This document shows, piece after piece, positions 3,517 through 41,941 of a DNA stretch of 44,406 nucleotides. Source of the DNA: Patescibacteria group bacterium (GTDB taxonomy: Bacteria > Patescibacteriota > Microgenomatia > UBA1400 > PJMF01). Position numbers and translations under genes: made by a program. The notes beneath the pieces are model-generated. The model did no database searches and was not told where the DNA came from. It saw only the letters and a list, made by a program, of their open reading frames with translations. How positions within the stretch are numbered: position 1 is the stretch's first letter; every line of letters begins with the position of its first letter. The stretch covers positions 1 through 44,406 of the forward strand of contig JBDLIL010000002.1 of assembly GCA_039714855.1 (NCBI GenBank), read 5' to 3'.

Positions 3517-4808
3517 GATTATTTATTCTATATTTTTTACTTTTGATTTTTTATGCTGTTTTTTCTTATTCTCTTACTGCTCCAAATTTAGTTTTAAGCT
3601 CTTGGGAACCTTATTGGAATTTTCAAAGCTTTATGTGGGAGACATTTTTTAATAATAGACAACTGTTGACATGTTCATACTTGATTTTAATTTCATCCCT
3701 ATTTTTAGCTTATTTATTGTTAGTAAAAAAAATTAAAGATCAAAAAATAAAAGTTAAAAGTTTTGCTTTCTTGTTTTTTATTCTTTGTCTTCCATTGTTG
3801 TTCTCTAATAATGCTCTTTCTTATGATGTCTTTAATTACATGTTTAATGCCAAAGAAGTGATTTTGTATAGAGGCAATCCTCACATTCAAATTCCTCTAG
3901 ATTTTCCTCAAGATGATTGGCTCAGGTTTATGCACAATACTCACACTCCAGCTCCTTATGGCTATGGCTGGACAGCGATATCACTAATTCCTTATGTATT
4001 GGGAATGGGGAAATTTCTACCCACTTGGGTTATATTTAGACTCACTAGTTTTTTAAGCATAATTTTATTATTTTTTGCTATCAAATATTTGGCAAAAAAA
4101 CTAAGTTTAAAATTAGATACCTATCACTACGCTATTTTATTTTTAAATCCACTATTTTTAATAGAGATTATTAGCAATTCCCACAATGATCTTTGGATGA
4201 TGGCGCCGGCACTTACTTCGCTAGCGCTTGTAAATAAACAAGAATCACCAAGCACAAAACAACAAACAAACTTTAAATTTCAAATAGCAAAAATATTTAT
4301 TTCTTTGTTATTATTAATCTTTTCTATATCTATTAAGCTGTCAACTCTGGTTTTAGTGCCGATATGGTTATTCTTAATTTTTAAAAATTTGGAAATTAGT
4401 AATTGGAAATTGTTTGGGTTTTTGGATTTGTTATTTGGAATTTTAAAAAAGCATGTAATTTTACTTAGTTCTATTTTGCTTTTTATACCTCTTTTTACAG
4501 AGCGCTCTAAACAATTTTTACCCTGGTATTTACTCTGGTCTTTGGTTTGGATTCCACTTATAGAAGTAAAAATTCAAAATTCAAAATTCAAAACACTGTA
4601 TTTCATTGACAATTATTGGGTAAGTTTGCTTTTAATTTTTAGTTTTACTGCTATGTTGCGCTACACAGCATATTTGTGGTTTGGAACTTATGAGGGTTTT
4701 GTGCCACTGTGGCAAAAGTTTATCACTTGGAGTGCTTTGCCAATTTATTTAATTTGGCTTCTAGTTTTTAAATACAAAAAGAGTTTAAAGACTGTGAGAG
4801 ATTTATAG
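3513..4808 (+). CDS. Polytopic membrane protein, candidate GT-C mannosyltransferase (MptB/GT87, DUF2029-like)
   Basis: ATGA overlap with the upstream GT2. Loop motif SYDVFNYMFNAKEVILYRGNPH followed by HTPAPYGYGW resembles the S-x-D-V-x-x-Y...NPY...YGP signature of polyprenyl-P-mannose-dependent GT-C enzymes. About 11 transmembrane segments. Confidence 0.45.
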   Translation: MRLFILYFLLLIFYAVFSYSLTAPNLVLSSWEPYWNFQSFMWETFFNNRQLLTCSYLILISSLFLAYLLLVKKIKDQKIKVKSFAFLFFILCLPLLFSNNALSYDVFNYMFNAKEVILYRGNPHIQIPLDFPQDDWLRFMHNTHTPAPYGYGWTAISLIPYVLGMGKFLPTWVIFRLTSFLSIILLFFAIKYLAKKLSLKLDTYHYAILFLNPLFLIEIISNSHNDLWMMAPALTSLALVNKQESPSTKQQTNFKFQIAKIFISLLLLIFSISIKLSTLVLVPIWLFLIFKNLEISNWKLFGFLDLLFGILKKHVILLSSILLFIPLFTERSKQFLPWYLLWSLVWIPLIEVKIQNSKFKTLYFIDNYWVSLLLIFSFTAMLRYTAYLWFGTYEGFVPLWQKFITWSALPIYLIWLLVFKYKKSLKTVRDL

Positions 4809-5667
4809 CACCAATTGCTTTTTTAACATTTGTTAGCTCAAAATGAATCTCACTCTTTAGTTTATTGCAATCCATGGCAGTGTTTTTTTGCAATGGCCTG
4901 CTAGCTGTTTTTAAATATTTTTCTAAACTACCTTGCTTAATTTCAAGATCAAGATTCAAAGTTTCATTAATTAATGTTCCAAATTCGTAATCACTAAATT
5001 TTTCGCCACTGCTAGCGTGGTAAAGACCAGTAGTATTTGTTCTAATTACCCAGTCTATGATTCGTGCAAAGTCATCGATATAAGTAGGGCCAAAATAATG
5101 ATCGGTAAATAGTGGAATATTATTTTTAATACTCTGAATAGTTTTTCTCACTTGGTCGGGTTTTTCAAAACTATCTGATCTAAATGGTGTGTCTATTCTT
5201 AAAATAGTATGTTTAATGCCTGAATTTAAAATAGCCTGTTCTGCTAGATATTTTGTTTTCCCGTACCACTCTATGGGGTTAGGATTATCTTTTTCTGTAT
5301 ATAGATCTTCTTTTTCGCCATCAAATACGTACGCGGTGGAGATGTGGATTAAGTGCTTGCCAGTAGCTTCAGCAGCTTCAACAACGTTGCTGGCTCCATA
5401 AACATTAACTCGATAAGCGCTGCCATCTTTGTCACCAGCTTGCTTCCAGGCTTCAGAAACGTTGGTAAAAGCGGCCATGTTTATTACAAAAGGAGCGCTG
5501 AACTCTTCAAATGCGTTTCTGAGTTGAATATAGTCTGTTATATCTACTGGATTTTTAGGATCATTACGATCAAGATTTATAAAATCGTATTCATGAGAAA
5601 AGTCTTTTATTAGCTTGGAGCCAACCAGGCCATTGCCGCCAGTGATTAGAATCTGATTTTTTGTCAT
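4768..5667 (-). CDS. rfbD: dTDP-4-dehydrorhamnose reductase-like SDR (RmlD family)
   Basis: GGNGLVGSKL Rossmann motif. HISTAYVFDG...YGKTKYLAEQ matches the RmlD STDYVFDG / YGxxK signature. It lies directly downstream of rfbB. Confidence 0.65.
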   Translation of the reverse strand: MTKNQILITGGNGLVGSKLIKDFSHEYDFINLDRNDPKNPVDITDYIQLRNAFEEFSAPFVINMAAFTNVSEAWKQAGDKDGSAYRVNVYGASNVVEAAEATGKHLIHISTAYVFDGEKEDLYTEKDNPNPIEWYGKTKYLAEQAILNSGIKHTILRIDTPFRSDSFEKPDQVRKTIQSIKNNIPLFTDHYFGPTYIDDFARIIDWVIRTNTTGLYHASSGEKFSDYEFGTLINETLNLDLEIKQGSLEKYLKTASRPLQKNTAMDCNKLKSEIHFELTNVKKAIGAINLSQSLNSFCI

Positions 5668-5670
5668 AGC

Positions 5671-6690
5671 TTAATTTGAATAATTTTTTTTAAAAAAATC
5701 ACCGGCTTTCTCTTTAAGTGGTTTCCACCAGGATTCATTATTTAAATACCAATCAATGGTTTTTTGCATTCCTTCTTCTAGGCTTACTGATGGCTTCCAG
5801 TCAAGTTCCTGGTTAATTTTACTCCAGTCAACGGCGTAGCGCCTATCATGACCAGCTCTATCTTTAACAAAATCAATCATATCTTCCGATTTATCCATAA
5901 GCCCAATCAGCATTCTTACTAAATCTAGATTTGAAACATCATCACTTAGGCCACCAATCATGTAAGTTTCACCTATTTTGCCACTCTCAAGGATCAAGTC
6001 GATAGCTCGACAATGATCTTGCACATAGAGCCAATCGCGGACATTTTTACCATCACCATAAACTGGTACTTTTTTATTTTCCATCAGATTTGAGATAGCC
6101 AGAGGGATGAGTTTTTCAGGGTGTTGATATTCACCATAATTATTTGAGCAATTACTCAAGGTAAATTTGAGACCATAGGTTTCTCCATAGGCGCGCACCA
6201 AGTGATCGCTACCAGCTTTGCTGGCAGAATATGGACTTCTGGGATCATAAGGAGTAGATTCAGTGAATTTTTGATTTGACCCCAATTCTAAGGAGCCAAA
6301 GACCTCATCAGTAGAGATATGATGGAATTTATCAATCTTGTTTTTTAATGCAGATTCCAATAGCACTTGAGTGCCTAAAACATTGGTGTTTACAAATTGA
6401 CTTGGATTGAGAATAGATCGATCTACGTGAGATTCGGCCGCAAAATGAACGACAGTATCTACGTCGTCCATAATTTTATCTACTAATTCTCTATCAGTAA
6501 TATCACCTTGAACAAAACTATAATTGGCATTATTTTCTATTGACTCTAGAGTTTTTAGGTTGGCAGCATAAGTTAATATATCCAGATTAATAATTTTAGC
6601 ATTGGGGTGCTCTTTAAGATAATAAAGAATAAAGTTAGAGCCAATAAAACCGGCACCTCCAGTAAGCAAAATTTTAGATGAATTTTTCAT
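5671..6690 (-). CDS. rfbB: dTDP-glucose 4,6-dehydratase
   Basis: TGGAGFIGSNF, HFAAESHVDRS, HISTDEVFG, YSASKAGSDHLVRAY, SNCSNNYGEYQHPEKLIP and RDWLYVQDHC are canonical RmlB motifs found across the full length. Confidence 0.93.
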   Translation of the reverse strand: MKNSSKILLTGGAGFIGSNFILYYLKEHPNAKIINLDILTYAANLKTLESIENNANYSFVQGDITDRELVDKIMDDVDTVVHFAAESHVDRSILNPSQFVNTNVLGTQVLLESALKNKIDKFHHISTDEVFGSLELGSNQKFTESTPYDPRSPYSASKAGSDHLVRAYGETYGLKFTLSNCSNNYGEYQHPEKLIPLAISNLMENKKVPVYGDGKNVRDWLYVQDHCRAIDLILESGKIGETYMIGGLSDDVSNLDLVRMLIGLMDKSEDMIDFVKDRAGHDRRYAVDWSKINQELDWKPSVSLEEGMQKTIDWYLNNESWWKPLKEKAGDFFKKNYSN

Positions 6691-6707: not shown

Positions 6708-6923
6708 TTATAAATTATCGTTTCTTCGCGAAATATCTATTAATTCTTGAGTTTTTTCTACTCCCAAAGAACTTCTAACTCTAACATATCTGTCTTCCAA
6801 TCTTTTGTATCTCTTTAATTCAAGTTCAAAAAGGTTTTTATAATAAGCAGCAACAAAAGACAAGATAATTACTATTACAATCAGGCTACGAATAATGTTT
6901 TTTGAAGATATGATTTGTTTCAT
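6708..6923 (-). CDS. Small single-pass membrane protein with a charged helical tail (function unknown)
   Basis: Its ATG overlaps the LCP gene stop as ATGA (6920-6923), which suggests translational coupling. One hydrophobic helix (LIVIVIILSFVAAYY) is followed by a charged region. Confidence 0.5.
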   Translation of the reverse strand: MKQIISSKNIIRSLIVIVIILSFVAAYYKNLFELELKRYKRLEDRYVRVRSSLGVEKTQELIDISRRNDNL

Positions 6924-8032
6924 AAATTTAGTTTATTTTTTACTTCTTCTTTAAATTTTAATTCATCTCTTATGATATAAACCCATTGATTGTTATAATT
7001 TTTAGTATTTGGATGAGTTATTACACCCGTATTTTCATCTGGGTAAATTGATAGTGATTGGCCAGAGAATTCGATATTATTTCTTTGCGGAATTAGAGTT
7101 CTGATGATGTTAGTTAATTCAATGCTGCTTAAATATTGATCAAAATTATTTTGATAAAAAACATAAAGTTTGCCAAGAGTACGCATGTTTTTGAGAGTGT
7201 TTGCACTGCTTAGTTGAGAGATTAAGCTAGAAATTACTTGTTGTTGACGCTCGCTGCGAGCCAAATCTGTTCCTTCGTCTCCTTCTGAGTGTCTACTACG
7301 AATATATTTTAGGGCTCTTTCACCAGACATTCTTTCTTTGCCTTTTTCAAAACTCACAGTTTCGTAAAGCTCTTCTTCATTTTTTGAACTAATGTCAGCA
7401 TTAGTTCTAGGAAATTTATTATCAATAAAACTCTCTTTAATTTCAATATCAACACCACCGACCAAATCTATCATTTGAGCTAATTGATTCAAAGTGAGAA
7501 CAATACTATTATTAATTTCCAGATCAGCTAATTGAGAAATCACATCTTGAGGAAATTTTTCAGGTTTTTCTAGATCCCTTTCTTGACCGTAAATATAGAG
7601 AGCATTAATTTTTGTTTTATACTCCTCTGACCACAAATCCCTAGGGATAGGCAAAGTATATATCTTGCCTGAATTTAAATCGATGGAAAGCAGCATCATG
7701 CTGTCAGTAAAAACAGGATGATCTTCTCTGTTGGAAATCTCATCTGAGCCAAGTAAAAGTATATTTTTTCTAACACCTTTAGCAATTGGCTCTTGTTTGA
7801 GTGTTTTTGTAGCAATTTCTTTTAATTCAGACCAGCTAAGATTGGCAGCAGTTCGAAATTGATTTGTTTTGTATAGAGCAATTGATCCGAGAATTATAAT
7901 GCTGCCGAAAAGAAAGATAAACAAAAAAAACAAAGTATATCCCAATGATTTTATCCAAATTTGAGATGCTAATTTTTTATATCCAGATTGAAGTTCTTCA
8001 GCTTCTTTGGTATCACTTGTAGTTGTGTTCAT
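6920..8032 (-). CDS. LytR-CpsA-Psr (LCP) family glycopolymer-to-peptidoglycan ligase
   Basis: N-terminal transmembrane anchor followed by LLLGSD, DSMMLLSIDL, LPIPRDLW, GGVDIEI, ALKYIRSRH and RSERQQQVI, which are LCP core motifs. Confidence 0.88.
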   Translation of the reverse strand: MNTTTSDTKEAEELQSGYKKLASQIWIKSLGYTLFFLFIFLFGSIIILGSIALYKTNQFRTAANLSWSELKEIATKTLKQEPIAKGVRKNILLLGSDEISNREDHPVFTDSMMLLSIDLNSGKIYTLPIPRDLWSEEYKTKINALYIYGQERDLEKPEKFPQDVISQLADLEINNSIVLTLNQLAQMIDLVGGVDIEIKESFIDNKFPRTNADISSKNEEELYETVSFEKGKERMSGERALKYIRSRHSEGDEGTDLARSERQQQVISSLISQLSSANTLKNMRTLGKLYVFYQNNFDQYLSSIELTNIIRTLIPQRNNIEFSGQSLSIYPDENTGVITHPNTKNYNNQWVYIIRDELKFKEEVKNKLNL

Positions 8033-9805: not shown

Positions 9806-11314
9806 ATGATAAATAAGACAGCCATAGATACCAATCCAGACAGTGATGAGGTTTTGCCCACTATCGAAACAGGTATGGGTGAAATTGAAGCCAAAAGGTT
9901 TAAAAAGAAGTCTGTTTCTGGTGCTATTTCTTATACCCTCAGAAGTTTGATTCTTTATGGCATCAGTATGTTTACTGCTGTTATTTTAGCAGGCTATCTT
10001 AGCGCAGAGGAGTTTGGTGTTTACGGCATAGTTACCCAAATAGTGGCTTTATTGCAATTTTTCTCTGACATTGGTTTGGGATACGCACTAATTCAGCAAA
10101 AAAATAAGCCAAGCTTAAAGGAATATAGAACGGTCTTTACTATTCAACAAATTTTAGCGTTATTAATATTTTTGACGACTGTTTTCATTGCCATGAGTGG
10201 TGTTATGCAAGAAAAGGTGGGAATTGCCGGTGTTTGGGTTCTGCTAGCCTTAGGAGCTTCATTTCCACTTAGTTCATTAAAGGTTATTCCGGCCATTATC
10301 TTAGAGAGAGATCTTAACTTTTCCAAGTTGATAATTCCTAATGTTTTTGAACAACTTGTTTACAATGCCATTTTGATTTATATGGTTATTAATGGCAAAG
10401 GTGTGTTTTCTTATGCATACGCTGTAATTGTCAGAAGCATAGTGGGGGTGATTGTCATGTATCTGGTTCAATCGTGGAAGATCGGCTTAGCATTAAATTT
10501 CAAAATTATTAAAAAAACATTGGGTACAGCTTTGCAATTTCAGGCCACTGACTTTTTAGCCAGAATTAAAGATCAGTTATTTTACCTAGTATTGGGTTGG
10601 TGGTTGCCACTGAATCAGTTTGGCTATATTACTTGGTCAAAATCTTGGTCGCAGATGCCGTATATGTTGACAGTGCAAAATGTGGTGGCTATTACTTTCC
10701 CAGCTTTTTCACGGCTTCAACATGATAAAAAACGTTTAGCAAAAGCCATAGAAAAATCATTATTTTTTATTACGCTTTTAATATTCCCCATGTTGGTGGG
10801 CATGAGTGTTTTTATTATTCCTTTAACACAAATTTTTGAGCGTTACCAAAAGTGGCAGCCAGCTTTGATTACTTTTATATTTTTTACTCTCAGTATTGCT
10901 TGGTCGGCTGTCTCCACTCCACTAACTAACACTTTAGCTGCCATAGGTAAAATCAGTATTACTCTTAGGCTAATGATAATGTGGACTAGCTTAACTTGGA
11001 TAATTACGCCAATATTATTGTGGAAATTTGGTTTTAATGCGGTGGCCTTTTCAGCCTTTTTAATCTCTTTTACGTCAATATTGCCAGTGTATCTTACAAA
11101 AAAATATGTCAAGTTTAACGCCTGGGATAATGTTTGGAGACAATTATTAGCAGCAATAATAATGGGGGTTGTGGGTGTATTGGGTTTGCAATACTGGGGT
11201 CAAAGTTTTACTAAAATGCTTATCGGTATACTAATAGTTGGTTTTTCATACTTGCTAATCTTAGCGCTAATCGCTAGAAAGAAAATTATTTTAGAACTAA
11301 AAAGCCTCCGCTAG
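9806..11314 (+). CDS. Wzx-type oligosaccharide/polysaccharide flippase (MOP superfamily)
   Basis: About 12-14 transmembrane segments. The N-terminal KKSVSGAISYTLRSL...LSAEEFGVYGIV...FSDIGLGYALIQ motif is typical of polysaccharide biosynthesis (Wzx) proteins. Confidence 0.75.
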   Translation: MINKTAIDTNPDSDEVLPTIETGMGEIEAKRFKKKSVSGAISYTLRSLILYGISMFTAVILAGYLSAEEFGVYGIVTQIVALLQFFSDIGLGYALIQQKNKPSLKEYRTVFTIQQILALLIFLTTVFIAMSGVMQEKVGIAGVWVLLALGASFPLSSLKVIPAIILERDLNFSKLIIPNVFEQLVYNAILIYMVINGKGVFSYAYAVIVRSIVGVIVMYLVQSWKIGLALNFKIIKKTLGTALQFQATDFLARIKDQLFYLVLGWWLPLNQFGYITWSKSWSQMPYMLTVQNVVAITFPAFSRLQHDKKRLAKAIEKSLFFITLLIFPMLVGMSVFIIPLTQIFERYQKWQPALITFIFFTLSIAWSAVSTPLTNTLAAIGKISITLRLMIMWTSLTWIITPILLWKFGFNAVAFSAFLISFTSILPVYLTKKYVKFNAWDNVWRQLLAAIIMGVVGVLGLQYWGQSFTKMLIGILIVGFSYLLILALIARKKIILELKSLR

Positions 11315-11842: not shown

Positions 11843-11883
11843 ATATTTCTTTCTGATAGGTATAAATAATATGTAATGATGCT

Positions 11884-11913
11884 GATTTTCTCTGTCTTTT
11901 GAGTTTTTGTCAA
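11884..11913 (-). promoter_or_regulatory. Promoter-like element TTGACA-N17-GAAAAT upstream of 11339-11842
   Basis: The minus strand reads TTGACAAAAACTCAAAAGACAGAGAAAATC, which matches the element at 12413-12442 at 28 of 30 positions. Confidence 0.4.
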
Positions 11914-11944
11914 GCTGGCGCAAAGACCTTTCGGCAGAAAAAGC

Positions 11945-12367
11945 TTAATTGGTATTAGGAGAGTATAGTTTATAATCTATTAAATTTCCCATTGCCACTA
12001 TAATAAAATCACAAATGAATTGATCCATTAATTCAGAATTTTCTACCAAAGATGCTTTTAGGTTTTCATTATTGCTGTACAAGATGAGTGATTGTACTAC
12101 CACTTCAATTTCTTTAATAAGAATCAGGACAAAAGGATATTCATTGCTTATTAATTCGCGATCAAAAAAGCATTCGATTAATGACTTAGTAGATCTTCGA
12201 AGAAAAATCTCAACGTACATTGTGTATTCACTACCCACGTTAAGCCCGTGTGCAAAAAGTAAAAAGATCTCAAGGGCATCAACTGAATTTTGGATATTAT
12301 CTGAATTCAAGTTCTGATATTCTGCTGCCAGTTGCTTTGGTGTTTTTGGACGGGAATAAATATCCAC
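11945..12367 (-). CDS. Hypothetical protein (no recognised family); start uncertain
   Basis: The ORF is open to a TTG at 12460, but that part overlaps the duplicated promoter-like element. The first plausible start downstream of it is GTG at 12367, and the first ATG is much further in (MYVEIF...). The stop is at 11945-11947. Confidence 0.35.
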   Translation of the reverse strand: MDIYSRPKTPKQLAAEYQNLNSDNIQNSVDALEIFLLFAHGLNVGSEYTMYVEIFLRRSTKSLIECFFDRELISNEYPFVLILIKEIEVVVQSLILYSNNENLKASLVENSELMDQFICDFIIVAMGNLIDYKLYSPNTN

Positions 12368-12412
12368 AACAGTGTTTTTTGTAAATATAAGTAGCAAATA
12401 AGTAATTAATGA

Positions 12413-12442
12413 GATTTTCTCTGTTTTTTGAATTTTTGTCAA
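12413..12442 (-). promoter_or_regulatory. Promoter-like element TTGACA-N17-GAAAAT upstream of 11945-12367
   Basis: The minus strand reads TTGACAAAAATTCAAAAAACAGAGAAAATC, a paralogue of the element at 11884-11913. Confidence 0.4.
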
Positions 12443-12463
12443 TATCTTTAGCAACAGCAAAAA

Positions 12464-20145: not shown

Positions 20146-20163
20146 AATTTTATATTGCAATAA

Positions 20164-25997: not shown

Positions 25998-27053
25998 ATG
26001 AAAAAACTAAAAATTAAAATTGATACCAGTCCTCTCTCTACGGGTCACGCCATCAGGGGGATTGGGGTTTACACAAGGCTTTTGACAAAGTATTTAGAAA
26101 AAATTCCAAGTATCAGGATACTCAAAACTCATGATTTTAAAGAAAAATCAGACTTAATTCACTACCCTTATTTTGACTTATATTTTAATTCACTACCCTT
26201 ATTTTCAAAACAAAAGAGTATTGTAACTATTCATGATCTAATCCCATTGAAATTTCCAGATAAATATAAACCCGGAAAAAAAGGCTCTTTGATATTTAAG
26301 AAACAAAAACTAGCTTTAAGAAGAATAGATGCTATCGTCACCGACTCTCAGGCTTCAAAAACCGATATTGTGAACTTGCTAGATGTAAGTGCTGAAAAAG
26401 TTCATGTAGTTTATTTGGCAGGCAATCCAAATATCAAGAAAAAAAATAAAAAAGAAGTTGACAAAATTAAAATAAAATACAGTTTACCTAAAAAATACAT
26501 TCTATATGTGGGAGATATTAATTATAATAAAAATATTCCCCAATTAATTAAAGCGACCAGATTATTGCCTGAAGATGTTTGCCTTGTTTGTGTGGGTAAG
26601 AATTTTCGCCCTCAAACAATTCCCGAATGGCAGGCGATTGAATCACAAATTGCTCTCAGTAATGTTGAAGAGAAGGTTAAATTTTTAACCCAAATTACTG
26701 GTGATGCTGATCATGAGTTGTCAGCTTTGTACACTGGAGCGTTGGCATACGTACAAGCCTCTTTATATGAAGGTTTTGGCTTACCGGTTTTAGAAGCAAT
26801 GCAATGTCGAACTCCAGTAGTTTGTAGCAAAAATTCTTCATTAATAGAAGTAGGAGGAAAGCATGTTGTTTTTTCAAAATTTGATTACGAATCACTAGCT
26901 GAAAATATTAATCATTTACTATCATGGTCAAAAACAAAAAGAGAGAATTGGGCAAGGGACGCATATAAATGGAGTCAAAAGTTCTCGTGGGAAAAAACTG
27001 CCAAAAATACAATAAAAGTTTATAAAAAAGTACTCTTAAATCATGATTCATAG
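25998..27053 (+). CDS. GT4 (GT-B fold) glycosyltransferase
   Basis: GIGVYTR N-terminal motif and the E-x7-E region ASLYEGFGLPVLEAMQCRTPVV. Confidence 0.78.
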   Translation: MKKLKIKIDTSPLSTGHAIRGIGVYTRLLTKYLEKIPSIRILKTHDFKEKSDLIHYPYFDLYFNSLPLFSKQKSIVTIHDLIPLKFPDKYKPGKKGSLIFKKQKLALRRIDAIVTDSQASKTDIVNLLDVSAEKVHVVYLAGNPNIKKKNKKEVDKIKIKYSLPKKYILYVGDINYNKNIPQLIKATRLLPEDVCLVCVGKNFRPQTIPEWQAIESQIALSNVEEKVKFLTQITGDADHELSALYTGALAYVQASLYEGFGLPVLEAMQCRTPVVCSKNSSLIEVGGKHVVFSKFDYESLAENINHLLSWSKTKRENWARDAYKWSQKFSWEKTAKNTIKVYKKVLLNHDS

Positions 27054-28716
27054 TTTAAGATTCAGGAATGTTTTGTTAGTTCTCGTTGTTGCTGTACTAA
27101 CTTTTATTAATACAAGAGTTTTTTTTCATACTGGGTTTCCCTATACTCATGATGGCGAAAATCATTTAGCTCGTTTTGCCAATTACAAGATCGCGATCAG
27201 GGAGGGTCAGTTTCCACCACGCTTTGCTCCCAATCTGATGAATCATTATGGTTATCCTGTTTTTAATTATAACTATCCTTTAGCAAATATTTTGTCTTTG
27301 CCTTTTTCATTTCTGAAAATAAATTATGAGATAACGTTTAGAATTTTAGTTGCTGCTTTTCTCATATTTGGATTTTGGGGAGTTAATAAATGGTTAGAAT
27401 CTTTGGGTTTTAAGCACAAATCAAAATTGTTTGGAATTAGTGTTTTTACTTTGTCGCCATACTTATTATCCACAATAGTTTTTAGAGGAAATATTGGTGA
27501 AATTATGGCAATGATGTTATTGCCATACTTATTCTATCTTGTAGAGCAAATTAAAAACAATAAATTAAAAATCAAAAGCTTGGGTTTTTTAATGGCAATT
27601 TTATTAACCAGTATGTTTATGCTCTCTCACAATGTTACTGTTCTTTTTGGCATATCGCTACTCTTTTTATACGCAGCTATTCGCTTTGCTAAGAATATTA
27701 ATTTTTGGAAAATTTTTTTACTTTTTAATTTTTATTCTTTAGGCTTAACACTTTGGTTTTGGTTGCCAGCTATAATTGAAAAAAATCAAATTATTTTAGA
27801 TGATGCCAGTCTTTCAAAGGGTTTTGCTGATCACTTTCCCACTTTAAGACAGTTGATTTTTTCGCCACTTGAATTTGGTTTTTCTCAGCTTGGTTCCATT
27901 GATTCATTTGGATATTCACTGGGATTTTTGCAATTAATAATTTTACTTTTAAGCCCAATACTAATGATTAAATTAATAAATAAAAAGAGATTTAAAAAAA
28001 ATTATTTATATTTTACTTTTTATTTTTTAATCTTCTTTCTTACTCTATTTCAACTTAAGTTTACTCAGGCAATTTGGTTGAAGTTGCCGCTAGTTAATTT
28101 TATTCAATTCCCGTGGAGACTAAGCCTTCTTATTACTGTCTTAATTGCTCCACTAGCAGCATTTATTTTTAAAATTACTAATAACAAATTGCGTTTTTGT
28201 TTATTATTAATAGCTTTAATACAAGCTAACTACTTTGTAAAAATAAGAGCTGTAGATTACTTTCATAAGAATAATATTGATTATGATGCTTTTTCACAAA
28301 GCAGCACTACTGCAAATGAAAATCTGCCTAAAAATTTTAAATACAAGCAAATTGATTGGCAACCGGGTCCAAAAATAATTAGCGGAGAGGGTGAAGTAAA
28401 CGTAGAATACTGGAAAGGCTCTGATCGCAAATATCAGTTAAGTTTAAATAAAGAAAGTATAATTGTTGAACCAACTATGTATTATTTGGGCTGGGAGACT
28501 TATACGAAAAACAACGACCAAAATAAAATAAAAGTTAACTATTTGGATAATGACGAAATTCAGGGCAGAATAGCTTATTTTTTGCCAGCTGGCAGTTATG
28601 AAATAAGATCAAAATTTACTCAAAACACTTGGGCCAGGATAGCTGGAAATTCGATTAGCATTTTTAGCTTTTTAGGAATAGTTGTTTATTATCTATATGG
28701 CAAAACCAGAACTTAA
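27043..28716 (+). CDS. Polytopic membrane protein, YfhO / PTPS-related-type GT-C candidate (paralogue of 8096-9802)
   Basis: YTHDGENHLARFANYKIAIREGQFPPRF...HYGYPVFNYNYPL, IQFPWRLS and a C-terminal YYLGWETY...LPAGSYEIRSKF module plus a terminal transmembrane segment. Confidence 0.55.
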   Translation: MIHSLRFRNVLLVLVVAVLTFINTRVFFHTGFPYTHDGENHLARFANYKIAIREGQFPPRFAPNLMNHYGYPVFNYNYPLANILSLPFSFLKINYEITFRILVAAFLIFGFWGVNKWLESLGFKHKSKLFGISVFTLSPYLLSTIVFRGNIGEIMAMMLLPYLFYLVEQIKNNKLKIKSLGFLMAILLTSMFMLSHNVTVLFGISLLFLYAAIRFAKNINFWKIFLLFNFYSLGLTLWFWLPAIIEKNQIILDDASLSKGFADHFPTLRQLIFSPLEFGFSQLGSIDSFGYSLGFLQLIILLLSPILMIKLINKKRFKKNYLYFTFYFLIFFLTLFQLKFTQAIWLKLPLVNFIQFPWRLSLLITVLIAPLAAFIFKITNNKLRFCLLLIALIQANYFVKIRAVDYFHKNNIDYDAFSQSSTTANENLPKNFKYKQIDWQPGPKIISGEGEVNVEYWKGSDRKYQLSLNKESIIVEPTMYYLGWETYTKNNDQNKIKVNYLDNDEIQGRIAYFLPAGSYEIRSKFTQNTWARIAGNSISIFSFLGIVVYYLYGKTRT

Positions 28717-35163: not shown

Positions 35164-36530
35164 CATTACTCTTTGTTCTATTTGGACTTTTGGCTATTAG
35201 TTATTTTGGTTATTTGTTAATCCTAAACATAGATAATAAGTTAAATATTTTAGAATATCTTAGCTTAGGATATTTACTAGGGTTGGGAGTTTTTACTTAT
35301 TTAATGTTTTTTAGCAATCTGGCAGGTTTTGCTTATAATTTTGTTAATATCCTTGGTCTTTTAATCATTTTGGTCTTACTCTTTGCTTTTTTACTAAAAT
35401 TTAGAAAAATAAAATTAACACAAAAAATCAAATTTAAGAAATTAAAGTTAGATAAAAATGAAAAAATATTTTTATTTGCTATTCTTTTCGTGTCCTCAAT
35501 GATTTTTATTGCCAGCTTGTATTGGCCGGTCAAAGACTGGGACTCTTTAGTATTGTATGATTTTAGAGCCAAAGTTTTTCTAGACACTGGTTTTATGGAA
35601 AAGGCAATCGAAGAGGGTTATTTTTTTGGATACCCTCTAATGACATCGCTTTCGCACCTGCTCGTTTACTTATTTGGTTTTAAGCAACCAGGAATTATCC
35701 ACAGTCTTTTTTATATTTGTTTTTTACTAATCTCCTTTTCTCATCTGAAGGATGAATTGGAGCGCAAACAGGCCTTGTTTTGGACTATGATCCTAAGTTT
35801 AACACCTGAGCTATTTGGACCCGCAAATATGACGTATAGCAACCTAGCTTATACTGTTTATTTGCTAATTAGTCTGCTTTATTTGTTAAAATGGGCAGAG
35901 AGCAACAAAGATTCTTATCTTCTCATCTCAGCCTTACTTTTGGGTCTAAGCACATGGGTTAGAAGCTCCGAACCTTTTTGGTTAATACTCGTTATTTTTG
36001 TATGGATAATATCTTGGACAAGAAAAAAGTGGTATTTACTTATTACTTATCCCAGCATTGTTTATGCCTTTCTTTATCCGTGGTCACGGTTTGAAAAGCT
36101 GCACAACGCTGAAGTTGCTTCAGCGTTAAACAGAATTCCGCAGTTCTCAGCTTTACTCGTGAAAGGCTTTGATATATCTAATTTTATATCAGTAATCAAA
36201 TACTTTTATCTTCATATAATTTTCCCAAACAAATTGATTTATTTGCTATTTGTTCTTATTTCTATTCTGCTTTGGCAAAAAAGAAGAAGGGCCAAGCTCA
36301 CTCACTGGCTGCCAATATTTTTTGTCCTTTTCTCTTTAGGAATTACTTTTATGGGTATTTATTTATTCAGTTTATTTTATGAAGATTGGGGGAATATAGG
36401 AGGCTCAGCTACCAGAATGACCATGTTTATTGTTCCCAGCATTATCTACTCTGCAGCATTAATTATTAACCTGGCAAACAAAGAGCTCAAAATTTTAAAC
36501 CTTATTTTACAGAAGATGCGAAAGTCATGA
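35160..36530 (+). CDS. Hypothetical polytopic membrane protein (candidate GT-C or polymerase/ligase)
   Basis: ATGA overlap upstream and about 12 transmembrane segments. An acidic loop, YWPVKDWDSLVLYDFRAKVF, follows the early transmembrane segments. Confidence 0.45.
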   Translation: MTLLFVLFGLLAISYFGYLLILNIDNKLNILEYLSLGYLLGLGVFTYLMFFSNLAGFAYNFVNILGLLIILVLLFAFLLKFRKIKLTQKIKFKKLKLDKNEKIFLFAILFVSSMIFIASLYWPVKDWDSLVLYDFRAKVFLDTGFMEKAIEEGYFFGYPLMTSLSHLLVYLFGFKQPGIIHSLFYICFLLISFSHLKDELERKQALFWTMILSLTPELFGPANMTYSNLAYTVYLLISLLYLLKWAESNKDSYLLISALLLGLSTWVRSSEPFWLILVIFVWIISWTRKKWYLLITYPSIVYAFLYPWSRFEKLHNAEVASALNRIPQFSALLVKGFDISNFISVIKYFYLHIIFPNKLIYLLFVLISILLWQKRRRAKLTHWLPIFFVLFSLGITFMGIYLFSLFYEDWGNIGGSATRMTMFIVPSIIYSAALIINLANKELKILNLILQKMRKS

Positions 36531-37679
36531 ATCAGAATAGCTTTCTAAAAGCTGCTTTGTAATGCCCTCTATAGAGTATTTATTAGCAACAATTTTTTTT
36601 ACATTTTTACCCAGGCTTTTTCTTAAACTCTCATTCTTTGCCAATTTATTAATCGCCACTCCAAGATTTTTAGATTTGGGAGTGACTATCAGAGCAGCAT
36701 TATGGGTAGCAAGCTCGTTGAAATTGCATTTGTTGCTAATAATAAGTGGCAGACCAACACTAGCGGCTTCCAAAATACCTATCGAAAAACCTTCTAGATA
36801 GGATGGATAGATAAATACGTCGCTGGCTTTAAATAGTAAAGATTTTTCTTTTCCAAAACAAACACCTTTTAGTAAAACTTTTTTTGATAAATTATATTTT
36901 TTAATTTGATATTTTAGCTCATCTATGTATCCACTGTCAGAACCAGCAATCACAAAAAAAACATTGGCTATTTTAATTCTTTTAATTGCTTCTATCAAAA
37001 TATCTATACCTTTTAATTGGCTAATTCTGCCCAAAAAAGTAAATATAATTTTATCTTTGGGAAGACTAAGTTTTGTCCTAGCTTGCATTTTGCTCATCTT
37101 TGTTTCAAATTCTTGCGGATCAACTCCGTTGCCTATTCGCAAAATTTTTTCACTATTAAAACCAAGTTTTTTTAAAGTGTTTTCTTCGTTATCAGAACTA
37201 GCTATTAGTTTTTTGGCTCCACTCAACATGAGCTTGCCAAACAAAAAATAAAATATTTTTTTTGCTAAGTCCATTTTCTCCAGTGTACCGTGTACACTAA
37301 TAATATATGGCTTTTTATAAATTTTAGCTAAAAAACAAATCCAAACGTGTTGCAAAGTAAAAAAATCATGAAGGTGTAAAATGTCAAAGCTTTTTATTTC
37401 CCCAACTGCTCGAACAAATAATTTGGGGGTAAAAAACATATGATAATTAAACGCTAAATAATTGCTTAAATTAGCAAAATAATGAATTTTTAAATTTTTT
37501 GTCTTTTTGATTTTTTTAGCAGCTGGCATTCTCTGCTCTTTATCAAAACAGTCAGAAGTATAAACAGTGATCTTGTGCTTATTTTTGACAATTTCATTGC
37601 TTAAATCATAAACTAGTTTGGCTGGTCCACCATAACTCCACGCCGGATAAAAGTAGGGAACTACCTGTAAAATTTTCAT
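36525..37679 (-). CDS. GT4 (GT-B fold) glycosyltransferase
   Basis: MKILQVVPYFYPAWSYGGPAK N-terminus and the E-x7-E region PSYLEGFSIGILEAASVGLPLI. It is the last gene of the minus-strand deoxysugar operon. Confidence 0.78.
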   Translation of the reverse strand: MKILQVVPYFYPAWSYGGPAKLVYDLSNEIVKNKHKITVYTSDCFDKEQRMPAAKKIKKTKNLKIHYFANLSNYLAFNYHMFFTPKLFVRAVGEIKSFDILHLHDFFTLQHVWICFLAKIYKKPYIISVHGTLEKMDLAKKIFYFLFGKLMLSGAKKLIASSDNEENTLKKLGFNSEKILRIGNGVDPQEFETKMSKMQARTKLSLPKDKIIFTFLGRISQLKGIDILIEAIKRIKIANVFFVIAGSDSGYIDELKYQIKKYNLSKKVLLKGVCFGKEKSLLFKASDVFIYPSYLEGFSIGILEAASVGLPLIISNKCNFNELATHNAALIVTPKSKNLGVAINKLAKNESLRKSLGKNVKKIVANKYSIEGITKQLLESYSDS

Positions 37680-37680
37680 A

Positions 37681-38583
37681 CTAACTTGAGAGTGACTCCC
37701 AACACTTTTTCATGCCATCACTGATGTTTGTTTTTGCCTCCCAGGCGAAATCTTTTTTTATAACGGAAGCGTCTAGGACAATTTTTTGTAGGTCACCCAC
37801 AATTTTATCTGAGTATTCAGTTTTAGCTTTCTTTCCAGTGATTTTTTCTGCAAGACTAAGTATTTCATTGACAGAATAACCTTTTGCTGAACCAATGTTA
37901 TAAATACCTGACTTGTATTTTTTAATCGCCTTTAAAAAGAAGACGTTTAAATCATCGATGTATAAAAAATCTCTTGTACTTTTGCCATCACCCCAAATAG
38001 TTATTTTCTCATTCCTGTGAAGCTTATTTAAAACAGTAGTGATTAATCCATGTACTGCAATCTTTCCATATCCCGGACCATAGAGCACAGCAGCTCTAAT
38101 AACAAGTGGTTCTATACCGTGAAGCAATTGATAAAGTTGTAAATATTTCTCAATACTAATTTTAACAATCCCATAAGAAGATGTTGGTTTTAAGGTATCT
38201 GTTTCGGTGGCTAAATTTTGACTGTCACCGTATACAGAACAGCCAGATGAAGGGTAAATTATTTTTTTAACTCCTGCTTTGACCATCAAATCAAGTAAGT
38301 TAATGGTGGGAAGCAAGTTTGCTTTAATGTCAGCACTGGGGTTTAAATTAGAAATACGCGGACTCGTACTCATTATCAAATGAATAACTAAATCAACTTT
38401 TTTTAGAGCTCTTTTTAAAAGTGTTGAGTTCTCATATGACCCAATAAAATATCTGACTCTCTTCTCATTAGATTTAGCTTTTTTTCGCTGCAAAAGATGT
38501 AAATCGTGATCCGTATTCTTGAGTAAAAAGCTCGTTAAGTGTTGCCCCACAAAGCCACTGCTGCCCAAAATTAATATTTTCAT
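37681..38583 (-). CDS. NAD(P)-dependent SDR epimerase/reductase (candidate NDP-sugar 4-ketoreductase)
   Basis: LGSSGFVGQHL Rossmann motif and YGIVKISIEKY (YxxxK). ATGA overlap with the upstream Gfo/Idh/MocA gene. Confidence 0.6.
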   Translation of the reverse strand: MKILILGSSGFVGQHLTSFLLKNTDHDLHLLQRKKAKSNEKRVRYFIGSYENSTLLKRALKKVDLVIHLIMSTSPRISNLNPSADIKANLLPTINLLDLMVKAGVKKIIYPSSGCSVYGDSQNLATETDTLKPTSSYGIVKISIEKYLQLYQLLHGIEPLVIRAAVLYGPGYGKIAVHGLITTVLNKLHRNEKITIWGDGKSTRDFLYIDDLNVFFLKAIKKYKSGIYNIGSAKGYSVNEILSLAEKITGKKAKTEYSDKIVGDLQKIVLDASVIKKDFAWEAKTNISDGMKKCWESLSS

Positions 38584-39464
38584 ACGGCTTTCCTCAACAT
38601 CTCTAACGCCATAGCATCATTAATAAAATCTTTATAAAAAGCACTCCAGTTTCTTTTTGCAATGCTATCAGTGGCAACTTTCAAAAAAACTTCAAAAGAA
38701 TCTGAGGCTTTTATTTTTTTTATTTTGTTATTTACAAGAATCTTATTTTCTAAATCTGCAGGAGTAGTGAATACCCTATCTACACTTACAATCTTATCTT
38801 CAGCAATAAATATGGCATTGTTTATATACCCTGAATTAAAACCACAATTGCCTATAACTATCTTATTTTTTGGATAGCTTGCAAAAAAACTAAAGGCCAC
38901 AGGAACTCCATTTTTGTTATCGGTAACTTCCAGCAAAACTTTTTTTGGCTGGCTAGCAAAGAATAATCTCCCTACACTCATGGCATATGGACCTAAGTCT
39001 TCAATGGCACCGCCGCCAGCTTTTTTGGAATATCTGTAATTATTATTTTCAAATTTTGGAAAAGAGAAATTGATATTAATCTTATTGGGATTTCCCAAGT
39101 TTTTTAGAAATTTAATTTGTGGGTGATAGGCATAAACAGTAGCCTCAGCTAAAAGTAATTTTTTTCTCTTGGCTAAACTGAGTAACTGTCTAGCTTGTTT
39201 TAAATTGCTGGTTGCTGGTTTATCAACGATGACATGCATTCCTGCATCAAGCGCTTTCTTAGCCCATTTGTAGTGTAAGCTATTTATTAGGCTTATATAG
39301 ACAATATCTGCCTGACTTTTTTCCAAAGCCTGAGCATAATTACCCCAATCTGCTTTTTGGGAAATTGATGCAATCTCAATCTTTGTAATGGCATCTATTT
39401 TTCTTATGGCAAAAAGTATTCTTCTTTTAAATATAGAAGATTTCCCCAAAACTAAGATTTTCAT
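38580..39464 (-). CDS. Gfo/Idh/MocA-family oxidoreductase (candidate NDP-hexose C-3 ketoreductase)
   Basis: An N-terminal Rossmann region followed by HYKWAKKALDAGMHVIVDKP (the E/D-K-P motif of this family). It lies immediately downstream of the 2,3-dehydratase with an ATGA overlap. Confidence 0.65.
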   Translation of the reverse strand: MKILVLGKSSIFKRRILFAIRKIDAITKIEIASISQKADWGNYAQALEKSQADIVYISLINSLHYKWAKKALDAGMHVIVDKPATSNLKQARQLLSLAKRKKLLLAEATVYAYHPQIKFLKNLGNPNKININFSFPKFENNNYRYSKKAGGGAIEDLGPYAMSVGRLFFASQPKKVLLEVTDNKNGVPVAFSFFASYPKNKIVIGNCGFNSGYINNAIFIAEDKIVSVDRVFTTPADLENKILVNNKIKKIKASDSFEVFLKVATDSIAKRNWSAFYKDFINDAMALEMLRKAV

Positions 39465-40702
39465 AGAGTTGCAATCAAGCTTCTAGCTTCTACGTTAAAA
39501 TACGATTTTTTTACTAGAGTAAACAGTTCATCTTTACTCATCCAATAAAAATTTGCTGGCACATAAGCAGGGTTTGCTTTTACTATCATATATCTATTTT
39601 GTGCATGGTAAAACCTCCCACCTTCTTCAGACAAAAGAGTGTCAAAATCTATCTTAGACTTCGGTGCATTTAAAAAGTATTCCATTAGAGGAGACATTCC
39701 TTCTGTTTTAAGCCTGTTCTTATAATCTGAAAAAGAAACAGTGGGAGCCAAATCAAATAAATTTCTATTTCCAGCTTCTATTTTTGCCTGAACAAGATAT
39801 TTACCTTCGTGCTCTATGAATCCTATCAAGCCAATGCCGGCATCTTTAAATAGTGGCTGAGTCCACCTGACAACCTCTCTATTTTTTGCTTCAACTTCTA
39901 CAGCTATGACAGAAAAATATTTTTTATCTTTGTGAAAAATTTCCCTCTCATTTCTATTCCATTTTTCGACGTTGTTTAATGATATTAGTTTACTTTCAAG
40001 CCAATATTTTTTCTTTAACTCATTTACCCAATGAATAATTTTATCTACGGGTGCTTTTCCGCTATGCATACAAGATAAGACTGTCCTGGCATCCATGTTT
40101 ATCAAATTATCTTCATGAATTAATGACTTAAGGTTTTCCAAAGAAATCCAGAAAAAATCACTATCGACTTTTATATTTCCATCAATTTCCAAAAGGATAT
40201 TTCTATTTTGCTTTTTATAAAATCTTGCACCCTGCTCAGGCTGTAAAATATCAAATAAAACTTTTGCTCCATTCTCTTTCGGATTTAAAAAAAATTCCAA
40301 GTATTTTGGAAACTTGCCATCATGGACCTTTGTATAGTTGCTTTTTGTTGCCTGCACGGTAGGCGAGAGCTGAACTAAGTTTATATTTCCAGGCTCCATT
40401 TTGGCCTGCATTAGCAAATGTCGCTTGCCATTTACCAATTTGCTAATAATTCCCAAAATGCCTTCTTCTGGCTGATGAATAATTGGCTGATTCCAATTAG
40501 TAACATTGGCGAAATTAGTTTTCACCTCCATGCCCTTCACCGTAAAAAATTTTCCTGATTTATGCTGCAAATCTCCAGTAGTATCATTAAAATACCAGCT
40601 CTCAAGCATATCAAAATTTATTGGCCTAACTCGAAACAGATCTTTTGTTGAGATGCTATTGAACCAATTAAAAAAGCTTGATAAAGTTTTACTTGTATTC
40701 AC
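39461..40702 (-). CDS. NDP-hexose 2,3-dehydratase (EvaA/TylX3/OleV family)
   Basis: Two internal homologous halves are present. The first reads HKSGKFFTVKGM...WNQPIIHQPEEGILGII...LMQAKMEPGN...LSPTVQATKSNY...EQGARFYKKQNR. The second reads WTQPLF...GLIGFI...LVQAKIEAGN...LAPTVSFS...EEGGRFYHAQNR. The start is uncertain: I take the GTG at 40702, while the track's GTG at 40825 overlaps the divergent gene. Confidence 0.8.
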   Translation of the reverse strand: MNTSKTLSSFFNWFNSISTKDLFRVRPINFDMLESWYFNDTTGDLQHKSGKFFTVKGMEVKTNFANVTNWNQPIIHQPEEGILGIISKLVNGKRHLLMQAKMEPGNINLVQLSPTVQATKSNYTKVHDGKFPKYLEFFLNPKENGAKVLFDILQPEQGARFYKKQNRNILLEIDGNIKVDSDFFWISLENLKSLIHEDNLINMDARTVLSCMHSGKAPVDKIIHWVNELKKKYWLESKLISLNNVEKWNRNEREIFHKDKKYFSVIAVEVEAKNREVVRWTQPLFKDAGIGLIGFIEHEGKYLVQAKIEAGNRNLFDLAPTVSFSDYKNRLKTEGMSPLMEYFLNAPKSKIDFDTLLSEEGGRFYHAQNRYMIVKANPAYVPANFYWMSKDELFTLVKKSYFNVEARSLIATL

Positions 40703-40732
40703 TTTGATAGAGAATAACAAAGTGTTAAATAT

Positions 40733-41941
40733 ATGAAAAGTATTGTTATTCTTATCAATCACTTCCAGCCAAAAATTGGCTATCAAGAATTTTTTCTTGC
40801 TAAAGAGTGGAAAAAGCTGGATCACAAGGTTACCGTAGTCACTTCAAATTACTTTTTTCCTTTTCCTAATTATGAAAATACGGTGCAATCAATTTTGGGA
40901 GAAAGAAAAAGAGAAATCGGTAGAAAAAAAGAAAGAGGCATAGACAGCATAAGATTAAAATCTAGTTTTCAGTTGCCAGGAGGGTTTGTTGCTTGGCTGG
41001 ACAATTTGGAAGAAACTTTAGCCAAACTAAAACCAGATTTAGTATTTGCTGATGGCGTGTTTCAACCACTAGCACTGCAAATATCACTCATTAAAAACAA
41101 GCAAAAATTTTTACTCGCTTTTGACTCGCATGCTTCAAGCTTTAATACCGACTTACATTCTAGCTTTTTAAAAAAGAGCTATATGTTTCTTTTTCAGAAA
41201 TTGCTAATTCCAAAAATAAAATCGGCTGCAAATGTTTTTACAGCAGTAGGAGAATCAGAGAGAAAAACATTAATAAAAGAATATGGATTAAAAGCAAGAC
41301 AAGTAAGGCTAATTCATCTCGGAGCAGATACAAGTATTTTTTACCCAGATTTAAAATCGAGATCAATCATCAGGAAAAAGCTTAAAGTCTCTGATAAAGA
41401 AATACTTTTTGTTTATGCTGGAAAAATAACAAAAAACAAAGATGTTCATGTCCTTATCCCAGCATTTGCTAAGCTTTTAGAAAAACAAAGTAAATCTAAA
41501 TTGCTAATCATTGGTACTGGTGCTGATAAATACATGAAAAAATTAGTCAATTTGGCGAAAGAAAGTAACTGCTATGAAAACATAATTTGGCTGCCGCAGC
41601 AAAAACATAAAAAACTGGCTCAATATTATAACGCCGCTGATATCGGCGTTTGGCCGGGTGACTTGTCTAATACTATTCAAGAATGCATGGCGTGCGGCAA
41701 AGTAGTAATACTAGCCAACAAAATTTCCAAACAGCAAAGTAGCAAGCACTTAACAAAAAGCATGGGGGTATTTGCTTTTAAACGAGGGTCTATAAGATCT
41801 CTCTCAAGAGTCATGATTAACCTCTGTAGCTCAAAAACAAAGCTTACTCAGCTGGGAAAAGAATCTCAAAAAACAATAGTCACAGAATTTAGCTGGAAAC
41901 AAATAGCAAAAAAACATTTGGAGGTTTTAACTCATGATTAA
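40733..41941 (+). CDS. GT4 (GT-B fold) glycosyltransferase
   Basis: Two-domain GT-B layout, with FVYAGKITKNKDVHVLI...LLIIGTGAD and a C-terminal nucleotide-sugar binding region. It is more divergent than the other GT4s. Confidence 0.6.
   Translation: MKSIVILINHFQPKIGYQEFFLAKEWKKLDHKVTVVTSNYFFPFPNYENTVQSILGERKREIGRKKERGIDSIRLKSSFQLPGGFVAWLDNLEETLAKLKPDLVFADGVFQPLALQISLIKNKQKFLLAFDSHASSFNTDLHSSFLKKSYMFLFQKLLIPKIKSAANVFTAVGESERKTLIKEYGLKARQVRLIHLGADTSIFYPDLKSRSIIRKKLKVSDKEILFVYAGKITKNKDVHVLIPAFAKLLEKQSKSKLLIIGTGADKYMKKLVNLAKESNCYENIIWLPQQKHKKLAQYYNAADIGVWPGDLSNTIQECMACGKVVILANKISKQQSSKHLTKSMGVFAFKRGSIRSLSRVMINLCSSKTKLTQLGKESQKTIVTEFSWKQIAKKHLEVLTHD

Follow-up and report, generated by a model that had tools for sequence, protein, structure and literature searches.

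A four-gene cassette with predicted 2,6-dideoxyhexose enzymes in a cell-envelope glycan locus of a Patescibacteria group bacterium

What does a Patescibacteria group bacterium do with enzymes of the kind that make 2,6-dideoxyhexoses for antibiotics? The question is raised by a stretch of 44,406 nucleotides (GenBank assembly GCA_039714855.1, contig JBDLIL010000002.1, positions 1 to 44,406), the whole of which is here called the window. On its minus strand, positions 36525-40720 hold a block of four adjacent enzyme genes, all found in the list of open reading frames (ORFs) where a preliminary description, made from the letters alone, had placed them, and Pfam confirmed the four families it had named. 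In order of transcription they encode an EvaA-type nucleoside diphosphate (NDP)-hexose 2,3-dehydratase (39461..40720), a short Gfo/Idh/MocA oxidoreductase of 294 amino acids (38580..39464), an extended short-chain dehydrogenase/reductase (SDR) of 300 amino acids (37681..38583) and a retaining, GT-B type glycosyltransferase of family 4 (GT4; PF13439 and PF00534; 36525..37679). We consider it probable, judging from the sequence, that the first three enzymes make a neutral NDP-2,6-dideoxy-D-hexose, which the GT4 then adds to an envelope glycan. The four genes are best read as a resident sugar-tailoring module of a Patescibacteria (candidate phyla radiation, CPR; Microgenomates-like) envelope glycan locus. 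The preliminary description had seen the genes and named the pathway correctly, and its interpretation is partly supported.

The dehydratase matched PF03559 (Hexose_dehydrat) at E=1.1e-127 and 423.8 bits (cutoff 25) in two separate stretches, indicating the duplicated two-half architecture, with two domain matches, that had been expected of it. A search of the PDB aligned the protein over its full length with EvaA (4j7g, E=8.1e-93; query 54-453 against EvaA 44-459). Glu139 and Glu190 in pocket A of EvaA have been proposed to be catalytic (PMC8987622). In our alignment they correspond to the glutamates of KMEPGN and QPEQG in the window dehydratase, and both are invariant in 18 relatives. Family and catalytic residues together point to C-2 deoxygenation as the probable activity. 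The gene has no ATG start; the candidates are GTG at 40702, the start chosen in the preliminary description, giving 413 amino acids, the same length as the relative P0003, and TTG at 40720, the public gene call, giving 419. The longest ORF (39461-40825, from GTG 40825) would overlap the GT4 gene that begins at 40733 and is read divergently. The dehydratase belongs to a small but real family, with 606 relatives at E<=1e-30 among 1.84 billion cluster representatives at 50% identity. Some of these relatives are far longer (630-936 amino acids; P0372, P0410, P0415, P0461 and P0488) and carry the dehydratase part at one end, which indicates probable fusion proteins in other lineages.

The second gene product matched PF01408 (GFO_IDH_MocA) in its N-terminal domain (E=1.3e-13, 52 bits, cutoff 24; profile positions 49-117 only) and PF22725 (GFO_IDH_MocA_C3) in its C-terminal domain (E=3.9e-9, 37 bits, cutoff 27). 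Its top PDB match is KijD10, described as a sugar 3-ketoreductase (3rbv, E=1.6e-20), and this bears out the earlier proposal that the dehydratase is partnered by a KijD10-type 3-ketoreductase. We took as catalytic the KijD10 residues that are point-mutated in PDB entries 3rcb and 3rc7; the Lys of DKP and the Tyr of DLGPY in the window protein align with them and are invariant in 14 relatives. Homologues are named by the Joint Genome Institute as NDP-hexose-3-ketoreductase or dTDP-3,4-didehydro-2,6-dideoxy-alpha-D-glucose 3-reductase, and we predict that the window enzyme is an NDP-3,4-diketo-2,6-dideoxyhexose C-3 ketoreductase. A ketoreductase match is also present in 60 of 80 fetched genome loci with a dehydratase relative, mostly directly downstream of the dehydratase.

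For the third enzyme the preliminary description had offered a choice between a 4-ketoreductase and an epimerase. That it is an extended SDR is plain from its match to PF01370 (Epimerase/extended SDR; E=1.3e-49) and from the motifs read in the sequence, GSSGFVG for GxxGxxG and YGIVK for YxxxK. We infer that it acts as an NADPH-dependent C-4 ketoreductase because it is co-located with the dehydratase and the Gfo/Idh/MocA enzyme in three genomes and has an NADPH-type motif. Its orthologues in L002, a contig of the closest relative (56% identity), and in L091, a marine Tara contig (47%), each lie beside a dehydratase and Gfo/Idh/MocA pair. In NAD-binding SDRs an acidic residue ends beta-2, and R-K in its place favours NADPH and hence a reductase. 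The three SDRs of the window, L002 and L091 have all lost the acidic residue and have R-K there (HLLQRKKA, HVLQRKPA and TSFSRKEI, respectively). Metagenome relatives of the SDR at 37-38% identity retain an Asp at the end of beta-2, and no dehydratase was found near the metagenome relatives, all of which are at most 38% identical.

Among solved structures the SDR is closest to 4-epimerases, first Thermotoga maritima GalE (4zrm, E=1.5e-47) and then PelX-like proteins, MoeE5 and UDP-glucuronic acid epimerases. This raises a different division of labour, in which the dehydratase and the Gfo/Idh/MocA enzyme would make an NDP-4-keto-2,6-dideoxyhexose, the SDR would be a GalE-like 4-epimerase with a different nucleotide sugar or the finished sugar as its substrate, and another SDR would reduce C-4. 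A candidate for that reduction is the RmlD-like 4-reductase SDR on the minus strand at 4768..5667 (PF04321, E=6.5e-56; TIGR01214 at 173 bits, short of its cutoff of 224), which adjoins the window's RmlB gene where there is no RmlC. RmlD-like SDRs also stand directly after the Gfo/Idh/MocA gene in locus L093 and within the same locus in L087, and the 2.9-kb contig L090, from a third close relative, carries dehydratase, Gfo/Idh/MocA and GT4 genes with no SDR between the last two. We nevertheless regard an epimerase as unlikely: the SDR gene is ATGA-coupled to the cassette, it accompanies the dehydratase and Gfo/Idh/MocA genes in three genomes, one of them from a distant marine lineage, and the missing NAD-type acidic residue, together with the conserved R-K, speaks for turnover of NADPH over a tightly bound NAD+.

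The cassette as a whole is conserved in the closest relative. On L002, a 186-kb contig of GCA_034680565.1, proteins 45-56% identical to those of the window are encoded in the identical order dehydratase-Gfo-SDR-GT4 (L002 10001-14237), with syntenic flanking genes. The L002 block is co-directional with its neighbours and its flanks are collinear with the window on both sides, indicating that the four genes of the window were inverted as a unit. Flanking inverted repeats were sought at the borders of the inverted cassette, and only AT-rich chance matches were seen. Orthologues of the cassette GT4 follow the cassette in L002 (45%) and in L090 (49%), and the constant core is the dehydratase, the ketoreductase and the GT4. 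A second GT4 gene, divergent from the cassette (40733..41941, plus strand; Pfam), has a 49% identical orthologue directly after the cassette in L002. The coupling of the four genes by ATGA overlaps that had been described holds at two junctions, dehydratase to Gfo/Idh/MocA and Gfo/Idh/MocA to SDR; the SDR and GT4 genes are joined as TAG-t-ATG, without the overlap. At its 3' end the cassette overlaps a convergent upstream gene by 6 bp.

The window around it is a cell-envelope polysaccharide locus, as had been claimed. We scanned with Pfam 39 of the 40 window ORFs of at least 100 amino acids, the exception being a 108-amino-acid ORF antisense inside the GT4 gene. The locus encodes a LytR-CpsA-Psr (LCP) ligase, a marker of glycopolymer attachment to the cell wall (6920..8032, minus strand; PF03816, E=3.4e-28), all named relatives of which are from Woesebacteria, Pacebacteria or 'Patescibacteria group' genomes, which makes a Microgenomates-like CPR bacterium the most likely host, and a Wzx-type polysaccharide flippase (9806..11314, plus strand; PF13440, Polysacc_synt_3, E=1.6e-44). 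It further holds ten family 2 glycosyltransferases (GT2; one GT2-GtrA fusion and nine more), four GT4s, at least eight PMT_2/AftD-like or unassigned polytopic (GT-C-like) membrane proteins, a GalE-like SDR, a GDP-fucose-synthase-like SDR and a hexapeptide acyltransferase. None of the window's gene products could be identified as an initiating phosphoglycosyltransferase. The deoxythymidine diphosphate (dTDP)-glucose 4,6-dehydratase (RmlB) that the preliminary description had placed at 5671..6690 on the minus strand passes the NCBIfam equivalog TIGR01181 with 488 bits against a cutoff of 365, and is the candidate supplier of the 4-keto-6-deoxy substrate.

None of the 39 scanned ORFs has a polyketide synthase (PKS), nonribosomal peptide synthetase (NRPS), aminotransferase or methyltransferase domain, in agreement with the earlier statement that PKS, NRPS and aglycone genes are missing from the window. 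A nearby aglycone cluster just beyond the window had been named as one finding that would speak against a glycan destination. The Logan contig L001, which is 99.9% identical over 10.2 kb, extends the right end of the window by 2.45 kb, and no aglycone genes were found in the window, in this extension or within 10 kb on either side of the cassette in L002. The GT4 family includes glycolipid synthases, and the cassette GT4 weakly matches NCBIfam models of lipoteichoic acid anchor and diacylglycerol glycosyltransferases, far below their cutoffs. A sugar bound for a small molecule or for a glycolipid of the membrane, for instance a glycosyl-diacylglycerol anchor or a secondary metabolite whose genes lie elsewhere, would also fit the fact that characterised 2,6-dideoxyhexoses all sit on small molecules or on the phenolic glycolipid of Mycobacterium kansasii (PMC8987622, PMC12248122). 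Such a destination is nonetheless improbable, given that the best NCBIfam similarities of the cassette GT4 are to polysaccharide GT4s (HpsP, XrtY-associated), that aglycone genes are missing from all three stretches, and that the gene neighbourhood consists entirely of polymer machinery. The transferases of natural-product deoxysugars belong to family GT1, not GT4.

The 2,3-dehydratase route had been described as almost exclusively actinomycete. This is true of characterised enzymes: those listed in a 2022 review, Gra27, TylX3, OleV, OssT, UrdS, SpnO and EvaA, are all actinomycete antibiotic enzymes (PMC8987622). It is not true of genomes. In a scan with each species represented by a single genome, a dehydratase relative is encoded in at least 586 loci; among the best 80, to which the following counts refer, 47 are actinomycete and 33 are not. 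The 33 come from Omnitrophota, Anaerolineae/Thermoflexus, Bacteroidota, Verrucomicrobiota, Planctomycetota, Desulfobacterota, Gammaproteobacteria, Acidobacteriota, Armatimonadota, Neomarinimicrobiota and one Aenigmatarchaeota archaeon. The dehydratases of the 80 loci are 39-46% identical to the window protein. A GT2 gene was detected near the dehydratase in 17 of the 33 non-actinomycete loci and in none of the 47 actinomycete ones, and FdtA in 9 and none, respectively. The non-actinomycete neighbourhoods that we examined are glycan loci in every case, one of them with the order Wzy-dehydratase-Gfo-(RmlD-like SDR)-GT2-GT4 and a flippase further on. Together, cassettes for 2-deoxygenation in glycan loci are common outside actinomycetes.

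This distribution bears on the origin of the cassette. The window dehydratase is about equally identical (40-46%) to actinomycete and non-actinomycete homologues, as would be allowed if the cassette had recently been imported by horizontal transfer from an antibiotic cluster of an actinomycete, perhaps as non-functional cargo. The ketoreductase, however, is 33-44% identical to its counterparts in ten non-actinomycete loci (Omnitrophota, Anaerolineae, Desulfobacterota and others) and only 23-32% identical to actinomycete neighbours, which argues against such an import. Furthermore, at 0.32-0.34 the cassette has the same GC content as its flanks and is no outlier in a window that stays at 29-37% throughout; synteny is kept in a relative whose proteins are only about 55% identical; and the ORFs are intact, with their catalytic residues conserved. 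Recent import is thus hardly credible, and a resident module is the better reading.

The same loci suggest another fate for the sugar. A DegT-type aminotransferase gene lies near the dehydratase in 19 of the 33 non-actinomycete loci, and a recurrent unit, GT2-FdtA-dehydratase-Gfo-DegT-(methyltransferase), is found among PMT_2-type GT-C and GT4 genes in Omnitrophota, Thermodesulfobacteriota and other metagenome bacteria (for the GT2-FdtA-dehydratase-Gfo-DegT part, L083 8880-14000, L085 8730-14352 and L087 8641-14129). By analogy with the logic of 4-amino-4-deoxy-L-arabinose (Ara4N) transfer, this unit suggests an amino-2-deoxy sugar delivered by a lipid carrier; we know of no characterised example of it. 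Since the ketoreductase subfamily of the window is elsewhere mostly accompanied by FdtA and DegT, that is, by amino-sugar routes, the window cassette might feed a 2-deoxy sugar that carries an amino group or another modification, such as a 3- or 4-amino-2,x,6-trideoxyhexose, with the aminotransferase encoded outside the window. In L002 there is indeed a DegT gene 4 kb downstream of the cassette. That gene is found with a Gfo/Idh/MocA gene and a hexapeptide acetyltransferase gene, which together make up the classic UDP-N-acetylglucosamine (UDP-GlcNAc) 3-amination set. There is no aminotransferase in the 44-kb window or its 2.45-kb extension, and in the lineage of the window the position after the Gfo/Idh/MocA gene is held by the SDR. 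We consider the amino-sugar outcome very unlikely here, and a neutral sugar the probable product; this neutral version, with an SDR in place of the aminotransferase, is the less common form of the cassette.

In the route that we propose, RmlB (5671-6690) would supply NDP-4-keto-6-deoxy-D-glucose, most likely dTDP-linked. The EvaA-type enzyme would dehydrate it across C2/C3 to give a 3,4-diketo-2,6-dideoxy sugar, the KijD10-like Gfo/Idh/MocA enzyme would reduce C-3, and the SDR would reduce C-4 with NADPH to yield a sugar of the olivose, oliose, digitoxose or boivinose type. There is no 3,5- or 5-epimerase in the window, so a D-sugar is expected. The co-transcribed GT4 would add this sugar to a lipid-linked or envelope-bound glycan, and the flippase, GT-C enzymes and LCP ligase of the locus would export and anchor the glycan. 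Dehydration and C-3 reduction are supported by homology and by conserved catalytic residues; the part played by the SDR, the carrier nucleotide, the configuration of the sugar, the acceptor molecule and enzymatic activity as such are inferred.

Several observations weigh against this route, in addition to the epimerase relatives of the SDR, its absence from L090 and the usual amino-sugar company of the ketoreductase. RmlB lies 30 kb from the cassette and the window has neither RmlA nor RmlC, so the nucleotide carrier is assumed. The ketoreductase is shorter than its other aligned relatives (294 versus 309-335 amino acids) owing to three small deletions, the largest of which removes 12 amino acids directly after beta-2, near the cofactor site. 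This deletion is common to two close relatives, a similar one occurs in a Myxococcales homologue, and we take the lost region to be a probably dispensable loop. Only 12-30 bp separate the 5' end of the cassette from the start of the divergent GT4 gene (40733), and a promoter and terminator scan of 36200-41200 found no promoter-like site upstream of the cassette; over the scanned stretch sigma-70-like sites were fewer than in shuffled sequence, and the scan was judged uninformative. Finally, in the literature on polysaccharide, O-antigen, glycan, Bacteroidetes and Patescibacteria wall sugars we found no characterised or biochemically studied 2,3-dehydratase from a non-actinomycete.

If the proposed route holds, 2,6-dideoxyhexoses would extend from the decoration of antibiotics to cell-wall glycans in ultrasmall bacteria that have not been cultivated, whose surface sugars probably mediate host attachment. 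Going further, we put forward only tentatively that Patescibacteria attach a neutral 2,6-dideoxyhexose to an envelope glycan that is linked to peptidoglycan or to lipid, and that 2-deoxy sugars of the EvaA/KijD10 type are widespread, though chemically unseen, in the surface glycans of many non-actinomycete phyla and of at least one DPANN archaeon. Standard acid hydrolysis in sugar analysis destroys 2-deoxyglycosides, which may explain why they have been missed. The enzyme families are textbook ones and public annotation pipelines already label these proteins; the gain lies in the distribution and the biological role and not in a new mechanism. The cassette offers an entry point for asking whether non-actinomycete surface glycans contain 2-deoxy sugars, and the non-actinomycete 2,3-dehydratase/3-ketoreductase pairs, at least several hundred in number, are a possible source of soluble, low-GC glycodiversification enzymes with different partners.

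We noticed several further features of these loci. In the Aenigmatarchaeota (DPANN) metagenome-assembled genome, a 2,3-dehydratase gene (43% identical) is followed directly by DegT (L004 / L086 10001-12794), and nearby are a C-methyltransferase/dTDP-sugar-isomerase fusion and a PMT_2-like protein. In the marine contig L091 (1549-12807), the order SDR-GT-dehydratase-Gfo is followed by GCV_T, a 2-phosphosulfolactate-phosphatase-like gene, FkbH_N with an acyl carrier protein, and MBOAT, a neighbourhood suggestive of a deoxysugar polymer with acyl or glyceryl modifications. In the window itself, the RmlB and RmlD-like pair (4768-6690) might produce a 6-deoxy-D-hexose in place of L-rhamnose, or might work in the 2-deoxy pathway. 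From 43589 to the right end at 44406, and on into L001 (1-3272), run genes for a 346-amino-acid CDP-tyvelose-2-epimerase-like SDR, completed in the extension, a 248-amino-acid AglF/RmlA-long-like sugar-1-phosphate nucleotidyltransferase, an AglJ/PpgS-like GT2 and a UDP-GlcNAc-3-dehydrogenase-like Gfo/Idh/MocA protein; together they resemble a further sugar-tailoring module, separate from the cassette. Its SDR and nucleotidyltransferase were considered as a local 4,6-dehydratase and NDP-glucose supply and were set aside as a substrate source, the SDR being CDP-tyvelose 2-epimerase-like (9rl0, E=3.5e-49). Four tandem paralogous polytopic membrane proteins of 538-571 amino acids, 27-32% identical to one another and with about 8-9 hydrophobic segments, are encoded at 18505-25155, two without a Pfam match and two with a weak PMT_2 match. 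A second paralogous pair (8096-9802 and 27043-28716) has weak AftD-like GT-C similarity, and with all classes counted there are about ten GT-C-like proteins within 44 kb. Between the flippase and the run of GT2 genes, two adjacent minus-strand ORFs with TTG starts (11339-12460; 194 and 171 amino acids) gave no Pfam or NCBIfam match.

How does the cassette compare with known systems? In the actinomycete olivose-type pathways, C-3 is reduced by a Gfo/Idh/MocA enzyme and C-4 by an SDR. The window matches the dTDP-D-olivose-type pathways of granaticin (Gra Orf27/Orf26), urdamycin (UrdS and partners) and oleandomycin (OleV/OleW) in this respect, with a PF03559 dehydratase and both reductases predicted to act on NDP-4-keto-6-deoxyglucose. 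It differs from them in its Patescibacteria host, its lack of an aglycone cluster, a GT4 where they have a GT1, a GalE-like SDR, a shortened ketoreductase of a mostly non-actinomycete subfamily, and an envelope glycan as the predicted destination. Compared with EvaA, the window dehydratase shares the full-length alignment, the two-domain duplication and the conserved Glu139 and Glu190, whereas EvaA feeds a 3-amino-2,3,6-trideoxy sugar (epivancosamine) through an aminotransferase of which the window has none. Compared with KijD10, the C-3 ketoreductase of dTDP-L-digitoxose in Actinomadura kijaniata, the window enzyme conserves the Lys and Tyr and the region of the non-canonical G-x-S/A-x-I dinucleotide motif; the similarity is low, however, with a weakly conserved alignment over query residues 42-268, and the crystallised KijD10 chain, at 350 residues, is about 55 residues longer than the window protein. 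The KijD10 route differs also in its 5-epimerase partner, which is missing from the window and whose absence fits the expected D-sugar.

Surface polysaccharides are known to use 3,6-dideoxy sugars derived by 3-dehydratases (PMC8987622). The CDP-3,6-dideoxyhexose pathways of O-antigens (E1/E3; abequose, tyvelose, paratose and colitose) resemble the proposed route in building a surface-polysaccharide dideoxyhexose from a 4-keto-6-deoxy intermediate, but they deoxygenate C-3 with pyridoxamine phosphate and iron-sulfur enzymes, whereas the window enzymes belong to other families and are predicted to deoxygenate C-2. A precedent for the cell envelope is the phenolic glycolipid of M. kansasii, which ends in a 2,6-dideoxysugar and so places such a sugar in an envelope glycoconjugate and not in an antibiotic (PMC12248122). 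That case differs in being actinomycete and in having a PKS-derived lipid carrier and no wall-linked polymer. The FdtA/DegT cassettes of Omnitrophota, Thermodesulfobacteriota, Anaerolineae and others share with the window the dehydratase and the ketoreductase subfamily (36-46% identity) and a setting in glycan loci with GT2, GT4 and PMT_2-like GT-C genes. They differ in having a 3,4-ketoisomerase, an aminotransferase and a methyltransferase, from which an amino sugar is predicted, where the window has an SDR, from which a neutral sugar is predicted.

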